Below, piece by piece: positions 3,703 through 62,138 of a DNA stretch of 64,000 bases. Position numbers and translations under genes: made by a program. The DNA is from Alphaproteobacteria bacterium. GTDB taxonomy: Bacteria; Pseudomonadota; Alphaproteobacteria; CAAGCB01; CAG-977. The notes below the pieces were generated by a model. The model was given only the letters and a program-made list of their open reading frames with translations, searched no databases and was not told the DNA's origin. The DNA lies in assembly GCA_017539865.1 (NCBI GenBank), contig JAFYCE010000078.1:27419-91418 (forward strand), read 5' to 3'. Numbering within the stretch: position 1 is the first letter of the stretch; each line of letters begins with the position of its first letter.

Positions 3703-5631
3703 ATGGGAAAAGTAATTGGTATTGACTTGGGAACGACGAATTCCTGCTTCGCTATTATGGACGGCAAGGACGCCCGCGTGATCGAAAACGCCGAAGGCGC
3801 GCGCACGACGCCGTCAATGGTCGCTTTCACGCAAGGCGGCGAAAAGCTGGTCGGACAGGCGGCCAAACGTCAGGCTGTCACGAATCCGGAAGGAACGTTC
3901 TTTGCAATCAAGCGTTTGATCGGCCGCCGATTTACGGACAAGCAGGTCGAAAAAGCGAAAACGTTGGTGCCTTATCACATCATTTCGGGTGAAAACGGTG
4001 ACGCTTGGGTGGAAGCGCACGATAAGAAATACGCGCCGAGTCAGGTTTCCGCTTTCGTTTTGCAGAAATTGAAAGAGGATGCTGAAGCCTTTTTGGGCGA
4101 ACCGGTTACGCAAGCCGTCATTACGGTTCCGGCTTACTTTGACGACTCTCAGCGTCAGGCGACAAAAGACGCCGGCAAGATCGCCGGATTGGAAGTCCTG
4201 CGTATCATCAACGAACCGACAGCGGCCGCTTTGGCTTACGGTCTGGATAAAAAGTCCAGCGGTACGATCGTCGTTTACGACTTGGGCGGCGGCACGTTCG
4301 ACGTGTCCATTCTGGAAATCGGCGACGGCGTTTTCGAAGTGAAATCCACGAACGGCGATACGTTCCTTGGCGGTGAAGATTTCGACGCGCGCATCATCAA
4401 CTATCTGGCCGACGAATTCCAGAAAGAACAGGGCATTGACCTGCGTCAGGACAAATTGGCCTTACAGCGTTTGAAAGAAGGCGCCGAAAAAGCCAAAATC
4501 GAATTGTCTTCCGCACAGCAGACCGAAATCAACCTGCCGTTCATTACGGCGGACGCGACGGGGCCGAAGCATTTGAACGTCAAACTGACGCGCGCGAAAA
4601 TGGAATCCTTGGTCGAAGATTTGTTGGAACGCACGAAAATTCCGTGTGAAAAAGCGTTGAAAGACGCGGGCTTGAAAGCTTCAGACATTGACGAAGTCAT
4701 CTTGGTCGGCGGTATGACCCGTATGCCCAAGGTTCAGGAAATCGTCAAAGAATTTTTCGGCCGCGAACCGCATAAAGGCGTGAACCCCGACGAAGTCGTC
4801 GCTTTGGGAGCGGCGATTCAGGGCGGCGTCTTAAAGGGCGACGTCAAAGACGTTTTGTTGCTAGACGTCACCCCGCTGTCTTTGGGAATTGAAACGTTGG
4901 GCGGCGTGTTTACGCGTTTAATCGACCGCAACACGACGATTCCGACACGCAAATCGCAAGTGTTCTCGACGGCGGAAGACGGTCAGACGGCCGTGACGAT
5001 CCGCGTGTTCCAAGGCGAACGCGAAATGACGGCGGACAACAAACTGCTCGGCCAGTTCGACTTGGTCGGCATTCCGCCCGCACCGCGCGGCATGCCGCAG
5101 ATCGAAGTCACGTTCGACATTGACGCGAACGGCATTGTGAACGTTTCCGCAAAGGATAAGGCGACCGGCAAGGAACAGACCATCCGTATCCAGTCTTCCG
5201 GCGGATTGAGCGAAGCCGACATCGACAAGATGGTCAAGGACGCCGAAGCCCACGCTTCCGAAGACAAGAAACGCCGCGAAGCCATCGACGCGAAAAACAG
5301 GGCGGAAAGCCTGATTCATGAAACCGAAAAGAACATCAAAGATCTGGGCGACAAGGTTTCCGCCGCCGACAAGGAAAAAGTCGAAGCGGATATCAAAGAG
5401 CTTAAAGATGTTCTGGAATCCGGCGATGCCGAAAAAATCAAAGGAAAGACGGAAGCTTTGATGCAATCCGCCATGAAGATCGGCGAAGCTCTGTATAAAG
5501 CGCAGCAAGCCGAAGCCGCCGCAGGCGCGGCCGGCGCTCAGACTTCCGGTGCGGACGCTTCCGCTTCGACGGAATCAAAACCGGATGAAGGCGTTGTCGA
5601 TGCCGATTTTGAAGAAGTCAAAAAAGACTAA
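3703..5631 (+). CDS. dnaK: Molecular chaperone DnaK (Hsp70)
   Basis: Contains [17 protein letters not shown] and the full Hsp70 architecture; 642 aa. Confidence 0.98.
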
Positions 5632-5710: not shown

Positions 5711-6868
5711 ATGGCGAAACAGGATTACTACGAACTTTTGGGTGTCAATAAAAACGCTTCCGACGCGGAAATCAAAAAAGCGTATCGCACTCTGGCGATG
5801 AAGTACCACCCCGACCGCAACCCCGGCGACAAGGAGGCGGAAACCAAATTCAAAGAAGTGACGGAAGCGTATGAAATCCTGAAAGACAATCAGAAACGTG
5901 CGGCTTACGATCAATACGGCCATGCGGCGTTCGCACAGGGCGGCGGAGCCGGAGGCTTCGGTGGCGGCTTCGGCGGGTTCAATTTCGGTTTCGGCGGCGG
6001 TTCGGGCGGCGGCTTCGGCGGCATCTTCGACGACATTTTCAGCGAATTCATGGGAGCGGCCGCCGGCGGACGAAGCAGAACCTCACAACAGGGGCAACGC
6101 GGCGCAGACATCCGCTACGATCTGGAAATCTCTTTGGAAGAAGCTTACACAGGTCTGAAAAAAGAAATCGAAATCCAGACGGCCGTCAAATGCGACGAAT
6201 GCAACGGCACGGGCGCGGCCGCCGGCTCCAAGGCGGAAACATGCGACATGTGTCACGGTACGGGACGCGTGCGCCGTCAATCCGGTTTCTTTATTGAAGA
6301 ACGCACTTGCCCGACTTGCCACGGTACGGGACAAGTAATCAAGAATCCCTGCAAAAAATGCCACGGCACGGGCAAGGTCGCGCAGAAAAAAGTATTGGAA
6401 GTCAACATTCCCGCCGGTATTGACACGGAAAACAGAATGCGTCTGTCCGGACAGGGCGAAGCCGGTTCAAACGGCGGACCGAACGGCGATCTGTATATTT
6501 TCGTTCACGTCAAGCCGCACCCGTTGTTCAAGCGGGAGGCAACGGATTTATACTGCGACATTCCCGTTTCGATGGTAACGGCGGCATTGGGCGGCACGAT
6601 TGAGATCCCCTGCATTGACGGCACAAAAGAAAAAGTCACGATCAGCGCGGGAACGCAGTCCGGCGACGAAGTCCGCCTGCGCAAAAAAGGGATGTCCGTC
6701 CTGCAAAGCAAAGGTTTGGGCGACCTGTTCGTCCGGTTCAAGGTTGAAACACCGACCAAGCTGACGGCGAAACAAAAAGAACTGTTGAAACAGTTTGAAG
6801 CGGAAAGCAACGAAAGCAGTCCGGAATCCAACGGCTTTTTTGAAAAACTCAAGGACTTCCTGAAATAA
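5711..6868 (+). CDS. dnaJ: Chaperone DnaJ
   Basis: J-domain with HPD (KYHPDRNP), a Gly/Phe-rich linker, four CxxCxGxG zinc-finger repeats, and a C-terminal domain. Confidence 0.97.
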
Positions 6869-55223: not shown

Positions 55224-55304
55224 ACAAATCGCCGGAGTTGTCCGTTTCGGCAATCAAGCTTCACGTTTCCGGTATTTGTTTGAAATTTTTTGTTTTTAAA
55301 ACGG

Positions 55305-55338
55305 CGGGGCGGAATTTTTATTAAAAAATTCCGCCCTT
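55305..55338 (+). terminator. Terminator hairpin after the PP2C/kinase gene, at the head of leader element A
   Basis: ggcggaatttttattaaaaaattccgcc followed by cttgttt. Confidence 0.6.
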
Positions 55339-55566
55339 GTTTCATGTGGAACATTTTTTTCTTGAAAGAAACCGGTATTCTTCATATTTTGGATACGTAT
55401 CGGCAACATTGGGTTGCCGGTAAAGTACCTTAGCGGGTGCAGAGATGCGCCATTATCCGTTTTGCTTATTACAAACACGGAAAATATTCTCGGATAACTT
55501 TAAAAGTCAAAAGATAATTGTTCTATGTGATTTTCTCAACCTCCCAAACTGCTGAAAGGTGATTTC
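55339..55566 (+). promoter_or_regulatory. Conserved structured 5' leader (copy A) upstream of the acyltransferase-3 gene
   Basis: Homologous to 59459-59801 upstream of the methyltransferase gene: near-palindrome TGTTTCATGTGGAACA, cttgaaagaaaccggtattcttc, acgtatcggc plus a hairpin, ccttagcgggtgcagag, ttatccgttttgc, acggaaaatat, and gatttctcaacctccc. Confidence 0.5.
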
Positions 55567-57021
55567 ATGAAAGAAAAAATTTTTGGTGCGCTAATGGCTT
55601 TAATCGTTTTGGCGTCGACAACGGGTTTATGGTTTTGTCATAAAGGAAAGATAACATTTTTGACAAATTTAAAACCGGAAACGGAAGTTCTTTTACAATA
55701 TCAGAAAAAAAACGACGGCAATTTAATATCCGTAAAGAAAAAATCGAAACCTGACGGCAAGATTTCATTTGAAGTTAAAGGAAGAACACTTTCTTATTTT
55801 AAAGTCAATGTGCCGGAGAATACAGTAATAAAAAATATTCAGTTCCGCGGTTGGAAAAAACAAAACATTATCCTGAACGCTCAAAATGAATATACGGGAA
55901 AAATACTGAGGAATCGTATCAGTATAACGGATTGGTATAATCTGATTGTTCTGGGAGGCTTGGGATACTATTTGGGATGGTTTTTAATTCATTCCTTAAA
56001 ATACGGCTTTCCGAAAGACGATCCGAAACTGCCGAAAATGTTAAATATCGAATTTTTGAGGATTGTGTTCACATTAATACTGGTTATTCATCATCTTAAT
56101 AATAATTTTCGGGAATTAAAAATATGGAATGCAGGCTGGTTAGGCGTTGAATTCTTTTTTATTTTAAGCGGTTTTTTATTAGTGTTAACTTTTCGTCCTG
56201 AAAAAACTGCAATCAGCTTTATTAAAAACAGATGGATTAGATTTGCACCTCTTGTCATTTTCGGAGGAGTATTGTCAAGTCTGTTTTTTAATCATGTAAG
56301 AGCAAGATATTTTGTAGAATCGATATTCTTTTATAGTTATGACTTCGATTTCATAAAATGGTATTATAATAAGCCTGTTTGGTATATTTATGTATTATTT
56401 TGGGTTGGAATATTTTATTTCTGTTTAATGAAGGCTTTTAAAAAGGAAATTGTAAATTTATTGATGTCCATTATTACTGTGTCAAGTCTTATCTATGTTA
56501 TGCGGTATAATGTTGCCACTTTAGGAATCTTTAGCGGTTGGATAATGCGCGGTTCGGCTTGTATGGGATTGGGGTATTTTTTAGCAGAAATATATAAAAA
56601 TGCGGAAAATGCCGTAATTGTTCGAAAGAAAACATACAATTCTTTTGAATTGTTTATACTTTTATTTTCAATATTTAATATAATATTTATAAAACAATTG
56701 TATATGGATCGGTTTGTTTCCTGTATTTCTTTTATGATTTTAATCCTATTATTTTCATTGAGAAAAGGTGCTATTTCGAATTTTTTCGAAAAACCCGTTT
56801 TTGCGAAAATAGCACGGTATTGTTTATCTGTATATCTGACACATTGGGTTGTAATACGACATATTTTTCCGATTTATTTGGAAAAATATAAAGAATTTTT
56901 TCTTGCGCATACAATTGTTCCGTTTTCTTTAGTTCTGATATCGGTATGCTTGTTAGGTGTTGTCACGCATCATGCGATTGAATTACCGGTAACTCGCATT
57001 TTGAAAAAATGGTTGGAATAA
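55567..57021 (+). CDS. Acyltransferase family 3 (OatA/WecH-like membrane O-acyltransferase) with an N-terminal extracytoplasmic extension of about 150 aa
   Basis: Acyltransferase_3 blocks (LRIVFTLILVIHH; WLGVEFFFILSGFLL) across about 10 TM segments; AT-rich. Confidence 0.7.
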   Translation: MKEKIFGALMALIVLASTTGLWFCHKGKITFLTNLKPETEVLLQYQKKNDGNLISVKKKSKPDGKISFEVKGRTLSYFKVNVPENTVIKNIQFRGWKKQNIILNAQNEYTGKILRNRISITDWYNLIVLGGLGYYLGWFLIHSLKYGFPKDDPKLPKMLNIEFLRIVFTLILVIHHLNNNFRELKIWNAGWLGVEFFFILSGFLLVLTFRPEKTAISFIKNRWIRFAPLVIFGGVLSSLFFNHVRARYFVESIFFYSYDFDFIKWYYNKPVWYIYVLFWVGIFYFCLMKAFKKEIVNLLMSIITVSSLIYVMRYNVATLGIFSGWIMRGSACMGLGYFLAEIYKNAENAVIVRKKTYNSFELFILLFSIFNIIFIKQLYMDRFVSCISFMILILLFSLRKGAISNFFEKPVFAKIARYCLSVYLTHWVVIRHIFPIYLEKYKEFFLAHTIVPFSLVLISVCLLGVVTHHAIELPVTRILKKWLE

Positions 57022-57047
57022 GTAAATTCAAATGGCAATTTTAAAAT

Positions 57048-57101
57048 AAAAAAAGCCGGGGAACTCCTCCGGCTTTTTGCTTTATAACTTGTTGATCCAA
57101 T
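57048..57101 (+). repeat. Direct repeat, left copy (duplicated 3' end plus terminator of the flavodoxin gene)
   Basis: aaaaaaagccggggaactcctccggctttttgctttataacttgttgatccaat versus 61493-61545 aaaaaaagccggaaaacttctccggctttttgctttataacctgttgatccaat. About 90% identity; a terminator hairpin lies inside. Confidence 0.8.
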
Positions 57102-57479
57102 AAGTGGCTTCGGTTTTTTAGAATTTATGGAATGATTCAAAAAAGTGGAAAAATAATATGACTGCGAATGGTAAATTTGCAGGCTTAATATGAATTTTTC
57201 TCTTAAAAGCAATCTCGATTTTTTGTTAAAACGGCATTTCTGTTTGATATTTTAAAGCGGTTATAGCTTTATAGTCCGTGACGAGCCGGTAATTTATCAC
57301 GGATTTTTTTGTAAAGATAAAATCGCACGGGTATCTATTATATCCTGAAAAAATATCCCTTCATTGAAAAAACAGTCTATAACGGCTATATAGACAACAA
57401 CTAATAGGCTATATACATTAAACAATGTCGGTTAAATAAAACAAGCTACTTTTAATAGTGTTAACAGGAGGTTTGAAAA

Positions 57480-57716
57480 ATGGGTAAAAAAGAAACACTG
57501 GATAATAATTTGAACTGTGAAAGAGGCTATTTGACTTTTAGGCAAAAAGAAGTGTTAGGATATTTGAGAAAAGGACTCTTAAACAAACAGATTGCTCACG
57601 CAATGGGATTGTCCGTTTCAACGATTAAACTGCACATTTCCGGTATTTTTATACGGCTGAACGTTAATACGCGGACGGCAGCGGTCGTCAAAGCGCAGGA
57701 ATTGGGATTGATTTGA
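57480..57716 (+). CDS. LuxR/GerE-type helix-turn-helix transcriptional regulator (HTH domain only)
   Basis: LTFRQKEVLGYLRKGLLNKQIAHAMGLSVSTIKLHISGIF matches the GerE HTH signature; 78 aa. Confidence 0.65.
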   Translation: MGKKETLDNNLNCERGYLTFRQKEVLGYLRKGLLNKQIAHAMGLSVSTIKLHISGIFIRLNVNTRTAAVVKAQELGLI

Positions 57717-57754
57717 GTTTAACATTTGGAATCGGAGCGGTTTTTCTAAAAGAA

Positions 57755-57770
57755 AAACCGCTCTTGTTTC
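57755..57770. promoter_or_regulatory. Perfect 16 bp palindrome TGTTTCATATGAAACA (copy 2), following a terminator hairpin
   Basis: Same palindrome at 59459-59474 and a near-copy at 55339-55354; each is preceded by a GC hairpin and followed by a T-run. Confidence 0.5.
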
Positions 57771-58108
57771 ATATGAAACATATTTAAATATTTTTCTTGT
57801 ATTCTGATAATGTATTGGTGCAAAAGAAAAATAAAAAAATGGCACAATTTGAAACGGACAGCATTGTTCTTATCACGACAATACGATTGTCAAAATTTTA
57901 GTGGCGTTACATCGGTAAAATTTTTGTTGAGATTTGTTTAAAAATCAGGATAATCTTAAGAGATAAAGAAAATGCTTCATTGGAAATATTTCTTTAAAAG
58001 TGGAAAATCGGCTTTTTGTCAGAAGTTTTTTAGATCATTTGAAATTTCAATATGATAGAGTGGGGATATGCTGGTTGAAATCTGAAAAAACAGCTGAAAA
58101 GGAAAAAA

Positions 58109-59011
58109 ATGCCGACGATAAAAAGCAAAACTCAATTTTTAAAAGAACTGATTGCATTGAAAGAAGTAATTGATGCAGGAAAAATCAGCACTGCAGCAGA
58201 TAAAAATGGATTGAAGTCGACTAATTTATCTAAATTGATTACATCTCTTGAAAGTCGATTGCATACGAAATTAATTTCAAGGTCTTCAAAGGGAGTATAT
58301 CCATTAGAAGAAGCTGTGAAAATAAATGAAACAACAGAAAAAATTATAAAGCTGCTTGAAGTCTTATTTGTTGAATATGGTCATAGTACAAAAATGACAG
58401 GCTGTATTTCCATATATTCCGAAGAGGATTATATCGGAAGCTATTTTTTTGAAAAATTACAAAAATTTTTGCAAAGTTATCCTTTTTTAAAGATAAAAAT
58501 TTTCTCTGGAGAAAAGGTGGATTTGGATCAAATGGATCTTATTATTTCCTCAAACGGTTCTAATTTATCACGTACGCGGTCTTTGTATAAAACAGAAATT
58601 CAAAGTCATTTTTATATATCGGATAAATATATTCAAAGACATGGAAAACCTGAAAATTTAAGTGATTTGTTGGAAAACCATTTCCTTTGTATGCGCCATA
58701 GCGATTTTCAACATAAGGAAATATCTTATATCATTAAAACGGCTAAACATTTAAATATAACGGCGGACGAAACCTCTATCGTATTTAGAGTTATTCAGAA
58801 TGGAGATGCTGTTGGCATTTTACCGGAATGGTGCGGAGATTTTGATCCTTCGGTCTTTAGGTTGGATAATGTTTTTATAAGCATCAAAAAAGATTTTGAT
58901 GTAATGTATAATATGAAAACAAAAAACGCTGTTATGATGAAATCTGTGCTGTCTTTTCTTAAAAATTTTAATAAAGAAGGAGAATTTTCTAAAAATCCTC
59001 CTTTAAATTAA
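58109..59011 (+). CDS. LysR-like transcriptional regulator
   Basis: N-terminal HTH pattern (L..L.ALKEVIDAGKISTAADKNGLKSTNLSKLITSLESRL...L..R) plus a co-inducer-binding domain of about 200 aa; very AT-rich. Confidence 0.5.
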   Translation: MPTIKSKTQFLKELIALKEVIDAGKISTAADKNGLKSTNLSKLITSLESRLHTKLISRSSKGVYPLEEAVKINETTEKIIKLLEVLFVEYGHSTKMTGCISIYSEEDYIGSYFFEKLQKFLQSYPFLKIKIFSGEKVDLDQMDLIISSNGSNLSRTRSLYKTEIQSHFYISDKYIQRHGKPENLSDLLENHFLCMRHSDFQHKEISYIIKTAKHLNITADETSIVFRVIQNGDAVGILPEWCGDFDPSVFRLDNVFISIKKDFDVMYNMKTKNAVMMKSVLSFLKNFNKEGEFSKNPPLN

Positions 59012-59101
59012 TTGCCCCGATGTTGGTTGATGAGAAAGATTTTATAGCTCCATACAAGAATAAAAAAACATCTCTTTATTGCAACATCGGAAGTAACAGA
59101 A

Positions 59102-59275
59102 TTATTTTTTCGATATGTCGGAGAGTGTTTCCGATTTCTGAATAAATTTTTCTTTTATCTTATTCAGAGATTTTGAAAAATGAGGATAATCAAATTGCAT
59201 AAAAAGTTCTTGCAATCCGTTAATTTGGTACAAGATATAGTCTTCTACATCGTTTTGTTTGAATTTTCTTTGCAT
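59102..59275 (-). CDS. Small hypothetical protein (57 aa)
   Basis: Minus-strand ORF MQRKFKQNDVEDYILYQINGLQELFMQFDYPHFSKSLNKIKEKFIQKSETLSDISKK with a strong SD (aaaggag) 7 nt upstream. Absent from the ORF track because it is under 60 aa. Confidence 0.3.
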   Translation of the reverse strand: MQRKFKQNDVEDYILYQINGLQELFMQFDYPHFSKSLNKIKEKFIQKSETLSDISKK

Positions 59276-59458
59276 TTTATACTCCTTTCATCGTTGATAT
59301 AAGAAGTATATTTTTTTTATGATTTATAACAAATTACCCATTTTATCATAAACCTGTATATTTTGAGGATATTCACGAACGCAGCTATAGGAGGCGGTTG
59401 TCAAGACGTAGAAACTGGGATTGGTCTGAAAGAAAACAAGGGCGGGTTATTCCGCCCT

Positions 59459-59801
59459 TGTTTCATATGAAACATTTTTTCTTTCTTGAAAGAAACCGGT
59501 ATTCTTCGTATTCTGAAAACGTATCGGCGGCACAGGGTCGTCGATAAAGCGCCTTAGCGGGTGCGGAGCCGTGAGAAGCTCTCATATATAGCCGGCGCAG
59601 AGATGCGTCGTTATCCGTTTTGCCTATGGGAAAACGGAAAATATCCCCGACTGTCTTTAATGATGGTTCGGGGGGCTTTTGACGTATGTTCAGAAGTCGC
59701 CGGTTTATCCCCGGACGATTTTAAAGGTCAAAAGGGTCATCGCTATATATGATTTCTCAACCTCCCGAACCGCCAAAAGGCGGTTTACGGGGGATTTTTT
59801 T
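59459..59801 (+). promoter_or_regulatory. Conserved structured 5' leader (copy B) upstream of the DNA methyltransferase gene
   Basis: Begins with a terminator hairpin (gggcgggttattccgccc) and the TGTTTCATATGAAACA palindrome. Shares ordered blocks with copy A, plus two insertions. Confidence 0.5.
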
Positions 59802-60914
59802 ATGGATAAACCGCATAATGCGATTTTAAATCAGGCTCAACGTATTAGAAACGATGAATTTTACACGCAATACGCCGATATTCAGTCGGAAATGAACGCT
59901 TATCTGGATTTTGATCCCGATGTGTTCCGCGACAAAACGGTTTTACTGCCGTGCGACGATCTGGAAGGGAGCAATTTCACCAAGTTTTTCGCGCAGAACT
60001 TTGAATTGTTCGGATTGAAAAAGCTGATCAGCACCAGCTACGCCGTTGAAAGCAAGCAATATAAGAAAGGCTATCAACCGACTTTGTTTGAAACGCGAAG
60101 CCCGTTGTTCGATTCGGACAAGACGCGGACGAACGGCAAGATTTTCACGCTGACCCGCGTCGAAGCCGAAAGGACGAATATCAACGCCCTGAAATGGGAC
60201 TATCTGGACGGCGACGGCGATTTCCGCAGTCCGGAGGTGACCGCTTTGCGCGACGAAGCCGACATTATCGTTACCAACCCGCCCTTCTCTTTGTTCCGCG
60301 CGTTTTTAGCGTGGATAATCGAAGGAAAGAAGACTTTTTCAATCATAGGAAATATCAATGCTCTGACATATCGGGAAGTGTTTCCGCTGATAACTTCAAA
60401 CAAAATTTGGTTAGGGCCCAGTATTTCAAGCGGAGACAGAGAATTTATAATACCTGAAGGAATTGTTGATTTTGAGAGATTTACAGGAATCATCCGGCAA
60501 AATGAAAAAGGGGAAAACATTTATTTTCAAAAAGTTGTCGGCGTCCGTTGGTTCACAAACATTGAACACGGCAAACGTCATCAACCGTTGTCCCTGATGA
60601 CGATGGCGGACAACGTCAAATTCAGCAAACACAAGGAAATCAAGGGCATCGGTTATCGGAAATACGATAATTACGACGCGTTGGAAGTTCCCTTTACCGA
60701 CGCGATCCCGTCCGATTACGACGGCGCGATGGGCGTTCCGATCAGCTTTCTGGATAAATACAATCCCGAACAGTTCGAAATCATCGGGGCTACGGAAAGT
60801 GAAGGCAGAGGGTTTTCAAACGGGCTTTGGCATGAAGAAAGTAAAACGCCTCAGCCTTTGATCGACAACAACAGAATCTTCAAACGTATCTTTATCAGGT
60901 ACAAGGGGAAATGA
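59802..60914 (+). CDS. N6-adenine-specific DNA methyltransferase (NPPF motif; EcoRI-methylase-like or phage-type family)
   Basis: DIIVTNPPFSLF is catalytic motif IV, and the N-terminal NDEFYTQ block fits. Start assigned to the ATG at 59802 (MDKPHNAIL), which is preceded by ggggga; the ORF track starts at 59679. Confidence 0.65.
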   Translation: MDKPHNAILNQAQRIRNDEFYTQYADIQSEMNAYLDFDPDVFRDKTVLLPCDDLEGSNFTKFFAQNFELFGLKKLISTSYAVESKQYKKGYQPTLFETRSPLFDSDKTRTNGKIFTLTRVEAERTNINALKWDYLDGDGDFRSPEVTALRDEADIIVTNPPFSLFRAFLAWIIEGKKTFSIIGNINALTYREVFPLITSNKIWLGPSISSGDREFIIPEGIVDFERFTGIIRQNEKGENIYFQKVVGVRWFTNIEHGKRHQPLSLMTMADNVKFSKHKEIKGIGYRKYDNYDALEVPFTDAIPSDYDGAMGVPISFLDKYNPEQFEIIGATESEGRGFSNGLWHEESKTPQPLIDNNRIFKRIFIRYKGK

Positions 60915-60915
60915 A

Positions 60916-61494
60916 ATGAAAACTTTTTTGAATCAAATCAGCGTGAAAGACATCTGTGAAGGCTTTATGTATAACGAACTGGAAGGGAAAGGACTGTACG
61001 GATTAAACGGAAAACTGGTCATTCAGCCGGAATATCAACGCAATTACATATATGCGGACGGCAAAAAGGATGTCGCCGTCATCGAATCCCTGATAAAAGG
61101 CTATCCGCTCGGGCTGATCTATTTCAACAAAACGGGGGATGACGCTTTTGAAGTTCTGGACGGTCAGCAGAGAATCACCAGCATCGGACGCTTTGTTACA
61201 AATCGTTTTGCCGTTAAGGATTCAAACGGAATGGAGCAAATCTTTGACGGCTTGGACAAGGAAATACGGGAAAAAATTTTAAACACAAAATTGCTTGTTT
61301 ACGAATGCGAAGGAACGGAAGCCGAAATCAAAGAATGGTTCAAAACGATCAATATCGCGGGGATTCCTTTGAACCGGCAGGAATTGATGAACGCGATCTA
61401 TTCGGGACCTTTCGTAACGGCGGCGCGACGGATATTTCCAACTGCGAAATGCTTTGCAAATCGCATAACCGCGCCAAAGGAAACCGTTGAATAA
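60916..61494 (+). CDS. DUF262/ParB-like (DGQQR motif) protein, possibly truncated or frameshifted
   Basis: FEVLDGQQRITSIGRF is the hallmark of the DUF262 N-terminal domain of GmrSD-type nucleases. Only 192 aa. A cryptic HNH-like motif is encoded in another frame at its 3' end. Starts 2 nt after the methyltransferase stop. Confidence 0.6.
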   Translation: MKTFLNQISVKDICEGFMYNELEGKGLYGLNGKLVIQPEYQRNYIYADGKKDVAVIESLIKGYPLGLIYFNKTGDDAFEVLDGQQRITSIGRFVTNRFAVKDSNGMEQIFDGLDKEIREKILNTKLLVYECEGTEAEIKEWFKTINIAGIPLNRQELMNAIYSGPFVTAARRIFPTAKCFANRITAPKETVE

Positions 61495-61545
61495 AAAAAG
61501 CCGGAAAACTTCTCCGGCTTTTTGCTTTATAACCTGTTGATCCAA
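61493..61545 (+). repeat. Direct repeat, right copy (authentic 3' end of the flavodoxin gene plus its terminator)
   Basis: See the left copy; on the minus strand it encodes ...DWINRL*. Confidence 0.8.
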
Positions 61546-62138
61546 TCGGCGATTTTGGCTTCAACCTGCTTATCGTATTTTTTATCCATGTTGTTAAAAT
61601 CCGCGTGTTGCAGGATTTTTGCATTTTTTGCGGTCGCGGCGAAATCTTCGAAGAATGTGCCGACATTGCTTCCCTGCGTTGAAAAAGGAACCACTTTTTT
61701 TCCTTTAAAATCAAGCTGTTCCAGAACAGAGAAAACCGGAGGGGCGACCGTGTACCACCAAACGGGCGCGCCGACGAAGACGATATCGTAAGCAGTAACG
61801 TCCGGCAGGGCTTCTACAACCGGATACTGTTTGTTTTTGATTTCCTTTTTCGATGTCGTGTAGAGTTTCGCACCGGTAGGATAAGCTTCTTTTGTTTTGA
61901 TTTCAAACGTGTCCGCATTCGTTTTCGCGGCAATTTTTTCCGCAATGTCTTTCGTGTGTCCCGTCAGCGAATAATATACGACCAGAACTTTGCCGAGGTC
62001 GTTCTTGACTTCGGCGGATTTGTTTTCGTATTGCGCCATTTCCTTTTTGTTTTTTGCCGAAACGCGGTAAAGACGGAACAAACCGCCTATGCCGCCGATG
62101 ACGACGGCCGCAATGATGATGCCTAAAACGTATTTCAT
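61527..62138 (-). CDS. Flavodoxin-family protein with an N-terminal membrane anchor
   Basis: VLVVYYSLTGHTKDIAEKIA is a flavodoxin FMN-binding loop; 203 aa. Confidence 0.7.
   Translation of the reverse strand: MKYVLGIIIAAVVIGGIGGLFRLYRVSAKNKKEMAQYENKSAEVKNDLGKVLVVYYSLTGHTKDIAEKIAAKTNADTFEIKTKEAYPTGAKLYTTSKKEIKNKQYPVVEALPDVTAYDIVFVGAPVWWYTVAPPVFSVLEQLDFKGKKVVPFSTQGSNVGTFFEDFAATAKNAKILQHADFNNMDKKYDKQVEAKIADWINRL

Follow-up and report, generated by a model that had tools for sequence, protein, structure and literature searches.

Genes and features at the locus

The window, as we use the term here, is the whole stretch of DNA that was analysed, 64,000 nt in length. It carries a full-length gene for an adenine DNA methyltransferase of the EcoRI family, directly followed by a truncated nuclease gene (Table 1). 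The methyltransferase ORF matches the Pfam profile PF13651 (EcoRI_methylase) over positions 2-345 of 345 (E 5.5e-114; 381.5 bits against a cut-off of 26.4), and the PADLOC model MTase_II (PDLC03297) with an E-value of 1.8e-85. Its NPPF sequence at 60276-60287 represents the catalytic (D/N)PP(F/Y) motif. Among the columns that are at least 95% conserved in the family, the window protein retained 83 of 89, a tally identical to that of the methyltransferase at locus L096, which is the partner of an intact nuclease. The sole window-specific loss among these columns was P54L, adjoined by W56G, both in the CDDPEW motif. Since these two exchanges are unique to the window and lie inside a conserved motif, the activity of the methyltransferase is uncertain. 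The palindromes rarest against expectation in the window were GGCC, GATC, CCGG and ACGT, and a mild under-representation was seen for GAATTC, CAATTG and AATT (z -2.3 to -3.1). The gene is probably an orphan methyltransferase gene.

Table 1. Features of the methyltransferase-nuclease locus, in coordinates of the window
Feature	Position	Strand	Basis or remark
72-nt direct repeat, left copy	57045-57116		follows acyltransferase gene
GerE/LuxR-type HTH gene, 78 aa	57480..57716	+	Pfam PF00196
LysR-type regulator gene, 300 aa, flanked by the GerE and methyltransferase genes	58109..59011	+	Pfam HTH_1, LysR_substrate
Conserved structured 5' leader, 324 nt	59478..59801	+	conservation, folding, covariation
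Adenine DNA methyltransferase, EcoRI family, 370 aa, full length	59802..60914	+	Pfam, PADLOC
Truncated nuclease gene, 192-aa ORF	60916..61494	+	Pfam, PADLOC, L096 alignment
DUF262/ParB-like domain, codons 1-170 of the 192-aa ORF	60916-61425	+	
Out-of-frame tail, codons 171-192 of the 192-aa ORF		+	
Deletion junction, single retained copy of AACGGCGGCG	61416..61425	+	L096 comparison
HNH relic in the other frame (NGGATDISNCEMLCKSHNRAKGNR, then stop)	61416..61490	+	Pfam HNH, L096 identity
72-nt direct repeat, right copy (terminator and flavodoxin gene 3' end)	61490..61561	+	
Bidirectional intrinsic terminator hairpin, GCCGGA...TCCGGC between A-run and T-run	61493..61523	.	sequence reading

The methyltransferase ends with TGA at 60912-60914 and the next ATG lies at 60916, which leaves a spacer of 1 nt and not the 2 nt given in the first-pass annotation of this DNA. 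That annotation had correctly recognised the three elements of the locus, namely the methyltransferase with its NPPF motif, the adjacent 192-aa DUF262 ORF with its DGQQR motif and an HNH-like sequence in another frame. The DUF262 ORF matches PF03235 (GmrSD_N/DUF262) with an E-value of 6e-23 (82.4 bits, cut-off 33.2), and its DGQQR motif is located at 61159-61173. The PADLOC restriction enzyme model REase_II (PDLC03418) is covered only at profile positions 4-184 of 372. The remnant keeps 89 conserved columns of the nuclease family, every one within the DUF262 part, and carries just 7 substitutions at conserved columns before the junction, all of them conservative. The other frame over 61305-61490 terminates in GGATDISNCEMLCKSHNRAKGNR, with its stop 4 nt ahead of the stop of the DUF262 ORF. 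This HNH stub covers just positions 24-47 of the 47 in the PF01844 profile (E 1e-4) and lacks both the CxxC pair and the catalytic Asp-His. The beta-beta-alpha-metal motif is incomplete and not in frame with the DUF262 protein. The 192-aa ORF and its neighbours were found identical in three further independent metagenome assemblies, and the arrangement is therefore not an assembly artefact.

Leader, terminator and flanking elements

At its 3' end the leader upstream of the methyltransferase forms a 13-bp hairpin (59762-59793), after which comes a run of seven T (59795-59801). This terminal hairpin contains the GGGGG ribosome-binding site and abuts the methyltransferase ATG. The leader is about 90% identical across three lineages and precedes every methyltransferase of the window clade, including the intact copies L096-L100. 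Its minimum free energy was -133 kcal/mol, compared with -97 ± 5.4 for shuffled sequences (z = -6.6). Nine base pairs were changed on both sides, whereas shuffles gave 4.4 ± 1.7 such pairs and slid controls 0-2. A sensitive Rfam scan assigned no family to the leader, the best E-value of 0.06 being at chance level and far under the gathering scores. Scanning metagenomes with the leader motif GATGCGNCNTTATCCGTTTTGC returned one match, a chance hit within a coding gene. A reading of the long helix as an invertible promoter found no support: all 11 of 11 nhmmer copies lie on the plus strand over the full matched length, and the internal hairpins covary.

The terminator behind the remnant serves both the remnant operon and the flavodoxin gene that converges on it; it was read from the sequence and was not listed by a simple terminator scan. 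The two copies of the 72-nt direct repeat are 85% identical and lie 4445 nt apart, the left copy being present in the window lineage only. The GerE gene travels with the cassette: in L001, L087 and L096, too, it precedes the methyltransferase, in differing chromosomal contexts. The LysR gene shares 85% nucleotide identity with the LysR gene at the same position in L096 and is missing from the L001 and L087 cassettes. We found no tRNA, tmRNA or Rfam element in the window that could serve as integration site.

A deletion between two short direct repeats

Two loci, L096 and L097, contain a cassette that is 94% identical and encodes an intact nuclease of 395 aa. A perfect 10-nt direct repeat, AACGGCGGCG, is present twice in the L096 nuclease gene (5615-5624 and 6201-6210), at a spacing of 586 nt and in differing reading frames. 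In the window the two outer flanks of L096 are joined exactly through a single copy of the repeat, and the sequence reads TTTCGTAACGGCGGCGCGAC across the junction. On either side of the segment that L096 retains between its repeats, the alignment to window positions 59548-61425 and 61416-61484 is free of gaps; the nuclease remnant up to 61425 is 94% identical at the nucleotide level, with no gaps, and the HNH stub is likewise 94% identical to L096 6201-6269. The alignment bears out the earlier suspicion that a nuclease gene has been broken here, the DUF262 ORF and the out-of-frame HNH piece being parts of the same gene. The loss amounts to 586 nt, or about 195 codons (about 171-365), with a frame shift. 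Since the deletion takes out the CxxC pair and the catalytic Asp-His of the HNH domain along with the middle region, a one-base conceptual repair cannot restore the nuclease. Three-frame translation and alignment with full-length homologues likewise excluded such a repair. Consequently, from the two options that the first-pass annotation had left standing, the degenerate remnant holds and the -1/+1 frameshift falls.

The intact family and its relation to known systems

The best 80 genomic loci all encode a nuclease of 386-399 aa with the C-terminal consensus ...DHVxAWSKGGxxxxxNCxMLCKTHNRAKGN before the stop; intact homologues end in ...MDADHVxAWSKGGATDIxNCxMLCKTHNRAKGNR. The suggested compact ParB-HNH protein thus does not correspond to the intact enzyme. 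Homologues are not consistently 192 aa long and the methyltransferases are consistently partnered with a nuclease, which argues against a novel short form. In the intact protein a helical middle region connects an N-terminal DUF262 domain (ParB/Srx-like, nucleotide-binding) with the catalytic CxxC/HNH domain at the C-terminus. In Pfam searches full-length members carried GmrSD_N and a C-terminal HNH domain (PF01844/PF14279), and DUF1524 was not found in them. Full-length homologues cover PADLOC REase_II (PDLC03418) from end to end, at positions 8-371 of 372 (E 6.5e-81). The PADLOC models REase_II and MTase_II are REBASE-style models, and the model may have been built from REBASE predictions rather than from characterised enzymes. 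Sequence searches of PDB and NCBIfam gave no matches. The AlphaFold models (mean pLDDT about 73) yielded weak structure matches, with E no lower than 5e-3 and TM no higher than 0.42, to proteins of ParB/Srx fold and to BrxU, with BrxU on top (E 5e-3, TM 0.26); these support the predicted fold assignment, nothing beyond.

Methyltransferase and nuclease genes are tightly linked. Of 56 complete loci across many phyla, 48 have an intergenic distance of -4 to +8 nt, and the usual arrangement is methyltransferase first, nuclease second, with a 4-nt overlap. This spacing shows that both genes form a co-transcribed functional pair, as had been proposed from the window. The pair is conserved in at least 589 species; it is also found on plasmids and in Flavobacterium phage laban6-1. 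The median pairwise identity was 79% for the nuclease and 61% for the methyltransferase, with the nuclease higher in 99% of pairs, a comparison that is biased by the choice of loci by nuclease score. A nuclease more conserved than its partner methyltransferase is unusual for Type II systems. One locus from a Cohnella MAG (L073) combines an intact nuclease ORF with a methyltransferase fragment only, a state that a cell with a classical R-M system would survive only if its nuclease were inactive or a second methyltransferase gave protection.

The intact homologues resemble the catalogued Type II R-M pair (PDLC03418 with PDLC03297) in adjacency, coupling and gene order, whereas the window copy, with its HNH domain destroyed, fits only the first half of the restriction enzyme model. 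As in Type II systems, methyltransferase and restriction enzyme are encoded by separate genes that lie next to each other, the restriction gene of the window being a fragment. The methyltransferase shares with M.EcoRI the full-length profile match and the NPPF catalytic motif. The partner of M.EcoRI is a PD-(D/E)XK endonuclease; here, by contrast, the partner is a DUF262-HNH protein. There is a precedent for a canonical Type II system in which a DUF262 protein is the restriction enzyme paired with a methyltransferase: Ban8145ORF124P from Bifidobacterium animalis, which REBASE lists under Type II restriction enzymes (RTCAGG) and which has a Type II methyltransferase partner (PMC13091528). Judged by its description, it probably belongs to another subfamily, its methyltransferase being annotated differently and its motif being asymmetric. 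Given the PADLOC matches of both genes and this precedent, the pairing is no unrecognised kind of R-M-like system, which had been the initial proposal. In the literature we found no report characterising an enzyme of this exact DUF262-HNH family, its recognition sequence or the exact pairing.

The family also shares the N-terminal DUF262 domain with DGQQR motif and the C-terminal His-Me-finger nuclease with GmrSD, BrxU and SspE (PMC4619093), the proteins from which DUF262 is best known. One alternative is thus a defence nuclease of modification-dependent (Type IV, GmrSD-like) or nucleotide-triggered action, for which the methyltransferase would be no more than a travelling companion. BrxU as the top, if weak, structural match, the stronger conservation of the nuclease and the intact nuclease ORF in L073 would fit this idea, but on balance we regard it as improbable. 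GmrSD, BrxU and SspE combine DUF262 with DUF1524, are Type IV or phosphorothioate-sensing and measure about 560-580 aa, while the family studied here is about 390 aa long and has a classical C-terminal PF01844 HNH domain with CxxC pairs in place of DUF1524. PADLOC places the nuclease in REase_II and not in a Type IV model. The methyltransferase gene is almost always directly upstream, often overlapping, and this obligate link argues for cutting that is blocked by modification rather than dependent on it. Furthermore, a broken nuclease stands next to a long methyltransferase ORF in the window (370 aa), in L087 (347 aa) and in L090 (361 aa). Loss of the nuclease first, with the methyltransferase kept, is the order expected if the methyltransferase protects against the nuclease.

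Sister alleles and timing of the decay

The same deletion junction is found in L001/L002 and in L087, each with additional lesions, and recurs in at least six independent assemblies, which disposes of the earlier suggestion of a sequencing error. L001 has lost an additional stretch of about 320 nt that cuts its methyltransferase ORF to 261 aa, and in L087 codon 158 of the remnant is a TAG stop. Further decayed copies of the family are frameshifted, in-frame deleted or interrupted. Comparing window and L001, we observed 1 difference in 164 positions in the patch around the junction, against 9/59 to 22/185 in the flanks. The 5' flank and the stub of the window are nearer to the intact L096 allele than to L001. 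Judged by these sequence patterns, recombination has made the window allele a mosaic in the region of the junction, and the junction patch was imported. In the same patch the window differs from L096 at 13 positions and from L087 at 18, and the lowest dS of any pair (0.30) is that between window and L096. Because the window is no more distant from the intact L096 allele than from the deleted ones, most of the divergence accrued before the inactivation. On the time scale of allele divergence the deletion is thus recent, and its presence in three lineages means that it either spread by recombination or recurred.

These comparisons also bear on the idea that the DUF262-only product is retained as a functional protein, for instance as a nucleotide- or DNA-binding partner or a regulator of the methyltransferase. 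Among the three deletion-bearing lineages dN/dS of codons 1-170 is 0.07-0.11 at a dS of 0.34-0.58; their remnant ORFs of 192, 206 and 157 aa retain most or all of the Pfam DUF262 region, and the start codon, ribosome-binding site and terminator of the 192-aa ORF are all intact. Low dN/dS is, however, found in all comparisons (0.07-0.17), the intact L096 allele included. We had considered an ancient shared deletion with a functional remnant, as suggested by values around 0.1, and downgraded it in view of the closeness of L096 and the mosaic structure. With the junction patch as a recombination import, the premature stop in L087, the additional loss of the methyltransferase in L001 and an AlphaFold model whose pLDDT of about 85 drops to 37-57 past residue 140, so that the protein is poorly ordered there, a retained function appears highly improbable.

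A programmed -1/+1 ribosomal frameshift producing a compact nuclease, or a one-base sequencing error, can practically be dismissed: the HNH-like tail is open in its own frame from 61305 to a stop 4 nt short of that of the DUF262 ORF and the single-base differences between the stubs of window and L001 are all synonymous in the HNH frame, but 586 nt are missing and not 1 nt, the stub is half a domain lacking its general base, no canonical X XXY YYZ slippery heptamer was seen on inspection of the sequence at or just before the junction, the junction is identical in independent assemblies, and the synonymous pattern is explained by recent inactivation together with recombination.

Discussion

We conclude that the locus is very probably a horizontally acquired Type II-like R-M cassette with a dead restriction gene. 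The pair in the window is a dead member of an already catalogued, apparently uncharacterised R-M family and a case of ordinary gene decay rather than a novel system of defence. In the intact cassette, the gene of an EcoRI-family N6-adenine methyltransferase is translationally coupled to that of a nuclease of about 390 aa; the methyltransferase would mark the recognition sequence in the host, and the nuclease would cut unmarked incoming DNA. Slippage or recombination between the AACGGCGGCG copies removed the 586 nt and shifted the frame, leaving the DUF262-only ORF and an out-of-frame, catalytically incomplete HNH stub. Since the methyltransferase gene is still full length, the present state would at most be that of an orphan methyltransferase beside a nuclease pseudogene. 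This resembles other orphan methyltransferases from R-M decay, in which likewise the restriction gene is dead, the methyltransferase ORF persists and sister lineages erode further. Unlike in that general pattern, the inactivating event is here defined to the base.

A more far-reaching and, taken as a whole, doubtful reading is that the intact family forms a mechanistically distinct restriction class, that the 10-nt repeats are a recurrent off-switch and that the leader is a new cis-regulatory RNA. A ParB/Srx-type nucleotide-binding switch would then gate an HNH nuclease on which m6A acts as a block and not as a trigger, resulting in a GmrSD-like machine of opposite polarity. Such a class could explain why the nuclease is conserved above its methyltransferase.

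For the window itself, the Type II-like cassette with a dead restriction gene implies that the annotation of MBR4127015.1 as a 192-aa DUF262 protein should be flagged as a nuclease pseudogene. The locus provides a clean example, resolved to the base, of the death of a restriction gene by deletion between short direct repeats within it, with the same dead allele in several lineages, by recombination or recurrence. Biochemical work should use intact copies, such as L096 (Logan SRR33926303 contig 57333), Flavobacterium xanthum DSM 3661 (L030) or phage vB_FspS_laban6-1 (gp007/gp008), and not the window copy. Beyond the single organism, the locus points to a widespread, highly conserved and apparently uncharacterised cassette of a methyltransferase and a DUF262-HNH nuclease.

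A deletion between short direct repeats removed the nuclease core

The methyltransferase, the short DUF262 ORF and the out-of-frame HNH tail described in the first-pass annotation are all present in the window sequence (see the table). The 370-aa methyltransferase matches the whole Pfam EcoRI_methylase profile (E 5.5e-114). The 192-aa ORF starts 1 base past its TGA and carries a GmrSD_N/DUF262 match (E 6e-23), while the alternate frame ends in GGATDISNCEMLCKSHNRAKGNR before its stop and covers only the last 24 of 47 HNH profile positions (E 1e-4). The MAG, labeled "Alphaproteobacteria bacterium", annotates the two genes as a DNA methyltransferase (MBR4127014.1) and a DUF262 domain-containing protein (MBR4127015.1). 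The 192-aa ORF recurs, unchanged and amid the same neighbours, in three other assemblies, which rules out an assembly error.

Searching with the 192-aa protein returned 2551 relatives, mostly 70-76% identical, many of which end at contig boundaries. A scan with one genome per species found relatives in at least 589 species, and in all 80 best loci of that scan the nuclease gene encodes 386-399 aa and terminates in MDADHVxAWSKGGATDIxNCxMLCKTHNRAKGNR, preceded by a CPLC motif. In full-length members Pfam places GmrSD_N between residues 36 and 163 and HNH between about 344 and 387, and it found no DUF1524 in them. Up to NAIYSGPFVT (residue 170) the window ORF tracks this family; what comes next is the family's last 24 codons, out of frame. 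AlphaFold modelling gave a mean pLDDT of about 73 for both the remnant and a 335-aa homologue, with confidence falling past residue 140 in the remnant. Foldseek matches were weak (E >= 5e-3), all to ParB/Noc/sulfiredoxin folds or BrxU; these predicted folds agree with the Pfam assignment and add nothing decisive.

The lesion could be resolved to the base using Logan contigs (L096-L100), reached via the 90%-identity cluster of the methyltransferase. They encode a 370-aa methyltransferase and, starting 1 nt later, the nuclease, whose gene is whole and undamaged (395 aa) in L096 and L097. L096 3747-5624 aligns ungapped to window 59548-61425 with 94.2% identity, and L096 6201-6269 aligns to window 61416-61484, likewise with 94.2% identity. 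The two alignments overlap by 10 bases, a perfect direct repeat, AACGGCGGCG, whose copies in L096 lie 586 nt apart and are read in different frames (V T A A and S N G G A). Deleting one repeat copy together with all intervening sequence yields precisely the window sequence TTTCGTAACGGCGGCGCGACGGAT, and the frame changes at the junction because 586 = 3 x 195 + 1. The degenerate remnant considered earlier is the correct reading, with 586 nt missing compared to intact L096. A one-base frameshift splitting a compact nuclease does not hold, as the deletion took the middle region along with the HNH motif's D-H and the CxxC pair. Neither a sequencing correction nor ribosomal frameshifting could restore a nuclease, since the catalytic D-H and CxxC are gone.

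The pair belongs to a catalogued restriction-modification family

Of the 372 positions in the PADLOC model REase_II PDLC03418, a full-length homologue matches 8-371 (E 6.5e-81) and the window remnant 4-184 (E 4.9e-50); the window methyltransferase matches MTase_II PDLC03297. The unconventional new system once proposed is not supported; the pair is a degenerate member of this already catalogued R-M family. A Bifidobacterium animalis DUF262 protein is listed in REBASE as a Type II restriction enzyme (PMC13091528). Published biochemistry appears to be lacking for the intact DUF262-HNH family. In the proposed mechanism, methylation would protect host DNA and the HNH domain would cut unmethylated DNA; the ParB/Srx-like DUF262 domain might add the nucleotide dependence that it confers in GmrSD and BrxU (PMC4619093, PMC12707154).

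Among 56 loci carrying complete copies of both genes, the methyltransferase stop lies -4 to +8 nt from the nuclease start in 48, and the gap is 180-3099 nt in the remaining 8. Plasmid-borne pairs occur on Enterococcus faecium megaplasmids and on small plasmids of Moraxella, Apilactobacillus and Pediococcus. On enterococcal megaplasmids the resistance genes erm(A) and optrA adjoin the pair; in a Flavobacterium siphovirus it is inserted beside the tape-measure gene.

Two features depart from the textbook picture of Type II systems. Conservation is higher in the nuclease than in the methyltransferase (median pairwise identity 79% vs 61%; higher in 99% of 1540 pairs among family loci L004-L083), in a comparison biased by the choice of loci by nuclease score; the difference spans Chloroflexota, Bacteroidota, Patescibacteria, Proteobacteria and Firmicutes. 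Furthermore, a Cohnella locus (L073) retains an intact nuclease ORF with only a fragmentary methyltransferase, an exception to the pattern of the methyltransferase outliving the nuclease.

Other decayed copies are frameshifted (L088, L090), carry an in-frame deletion (L089) or are split by inserted genes (L090). The insert in L090, about 3.8 kb, encodes a DUF1016/YhcG nuclease and a PARIS-like pair made up of an AAA_15/AAA_21 ATPase and a DUF4276 protein, among other genes. This arrangement resembles a defence islet within an R-M cassette.

The methyltransferase is probably an active orphan

The window methyltransferase is full length and keeps 83 of the 89 columns whose conservation among 56 family members is 95% or more. 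The L096 enzyme, which must work because an intact nuclease adjoins it, also keeps 83. Five of the six apparent losses are clade-specific and common to L096; the window alone carries P54L and W56G, both within CDDPEW, a motif that is otherwise invariant. The dN/dS between window and L096 is 0.14. Judged from sequence, the window protein is probably an active orphan methyltransferase, with real uncertainty remaining.

A structured leader and a variable site

The segment upstream of the methyltransferase is about 90% identical between lineages, folds with z = -6.6 and shows compensatory changes in nine pairs, of which six lie in a single long closing helix. At its 3' end a 13-bp hairpin followed by T7 sequesters the ribosome-binding site. 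Rfam gave no match. We regard this leader as a candidate for a new cis-regulatory RNA of the attenuator or riboswitch-like kind. The long helix could possibly be an invertible promoter instead, but no inverted copy was seen. A second, shorter copy of this terminator-plus-leader lies directly against the start codon of an Acyl_transf_3 gene, which has low GC content and is missing from the relative L001.

GerE-type and LysR-type regulator genes travel with the cassette. L096 has the same order (GerE, LysR, methyltransferase, nuclease) in a different chromosomal setting, with thrS-infC on one side and uvrD on the other. Beside the flavodoxin gene, close relatives carry other accessory genes in place of the cassette, which marks this site as a variable hot spot. 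GC content rises from about 30% over 55250-59400 through 44-48% in the cassette to 50-54% in the downstream core genes.

A 72-nt direct repeat, containing a terminator hairpin and the 3' end of the flavodoxin gene, has its left copy only in the window lineage. The layout, leader-acyltransferase-repeat and then leader-methyltransferase-remnant-repeat, points to an exchange of alternative cassettes at a single site. The perfect palindrome TGTTTCATATGAAACA lies within a 28-nt repeat found at the tail of two terminators, those that follow GerE and LysR; its copies flank a 1.7-kb LysR segment absent from L001. Possible readings are a duplicated terminator end or an operator.

Coordinates of features (window positions unless a comparison locus is named)
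Feature	Location	Strand	Remarks
Leader	59478-59801	+	324 nt, directly 5' of methyltransferase ATG
Leader relatives	L001 6892-7218; L087 4938-5267; L096 3742-4003
Shorter leader copy	55307-55565	+	nhmmer E 2.5e-23; two internal segments missing
Acyl_transf_3 gene	55567-57021
72-nt repeat	57045-57116; 61490-61561		85% identical, 4445 nt apart
16-nt palindrome	57765-57780; 59459-59474
Methyltransferase ORF	59802-60914		NPPF at 60276-60287
192-aa ORF	60916-61494		DGQQR at 61159-61173
HNH alternate frame	61305-61490
10-base repeat	L096 5615-5624; 6201-6210
Segment 1	60916-61100		differences: 12 to L096 (intact), 22 to L001 (deleted)
Segment 2	61101-61260		21 to L096, 21 to L001
Segment 3, contains junction	61261-61424		13 to L096, 1 to L001
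Segment 4, HNH stub	61426-61484		4 to L096, 9 to L001
Site beside flavodoxin gene in close relatives	L093 8650-10296; L094 8726-9949		AAA_14/DUF4143 ATPase, or small HARE-HTH and HTH_3 genes
Cohnella sp. MAG locus	L073 5414-7170		389-aa nuclease; methyltransferase residues 193-350, split into small ORFs
E. faecium plasmid pBN83-1	L084 3810-6164		intact pair
Flavobacterium phage vB_FspS_laban6-1	L085 2781-5143		intact pair
Metagenomic locus	L090 69-6187		insert parts methyltransferase from frameshifted nuclease

The dead allele across lineages

The same junction occurs in L001/L002 and in L087, with remnant proteins 90% and 92% identical to that of the window, respectively. L001 has suffered a further deletion of about 320 nt and its methyltransferase ORF is down to 261 aa; the L087 remnant has a TAG at codon 158. 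Over codons 1-170 the three deleted alleles show dN/dS of 0.07-0.11, similar to the nearby flavodoxin, hisB and SpoIIE genes, and all five isolated differences between the window and L001 HNH stubs fall at third positions of the HNH frame. Such low values could be read as selection on a functional remnant. We set this reading aside, as intact L096 is as near to the window (dS 0.30) as the deleted alleles are (L001 0.34, L087 0.58). The window allele is a mosaic of L096-like and L001-like segments, and together with the closeness of L096 this pattern indicates that most divergence predates nuclease loss. The junction patch reflects either homologous recombination between lineages or repeated origin at the 10-nt repeat; in either case a functional remnant is not required. 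The window locus is a base-resolved lesion with an interesting small-scale population history.
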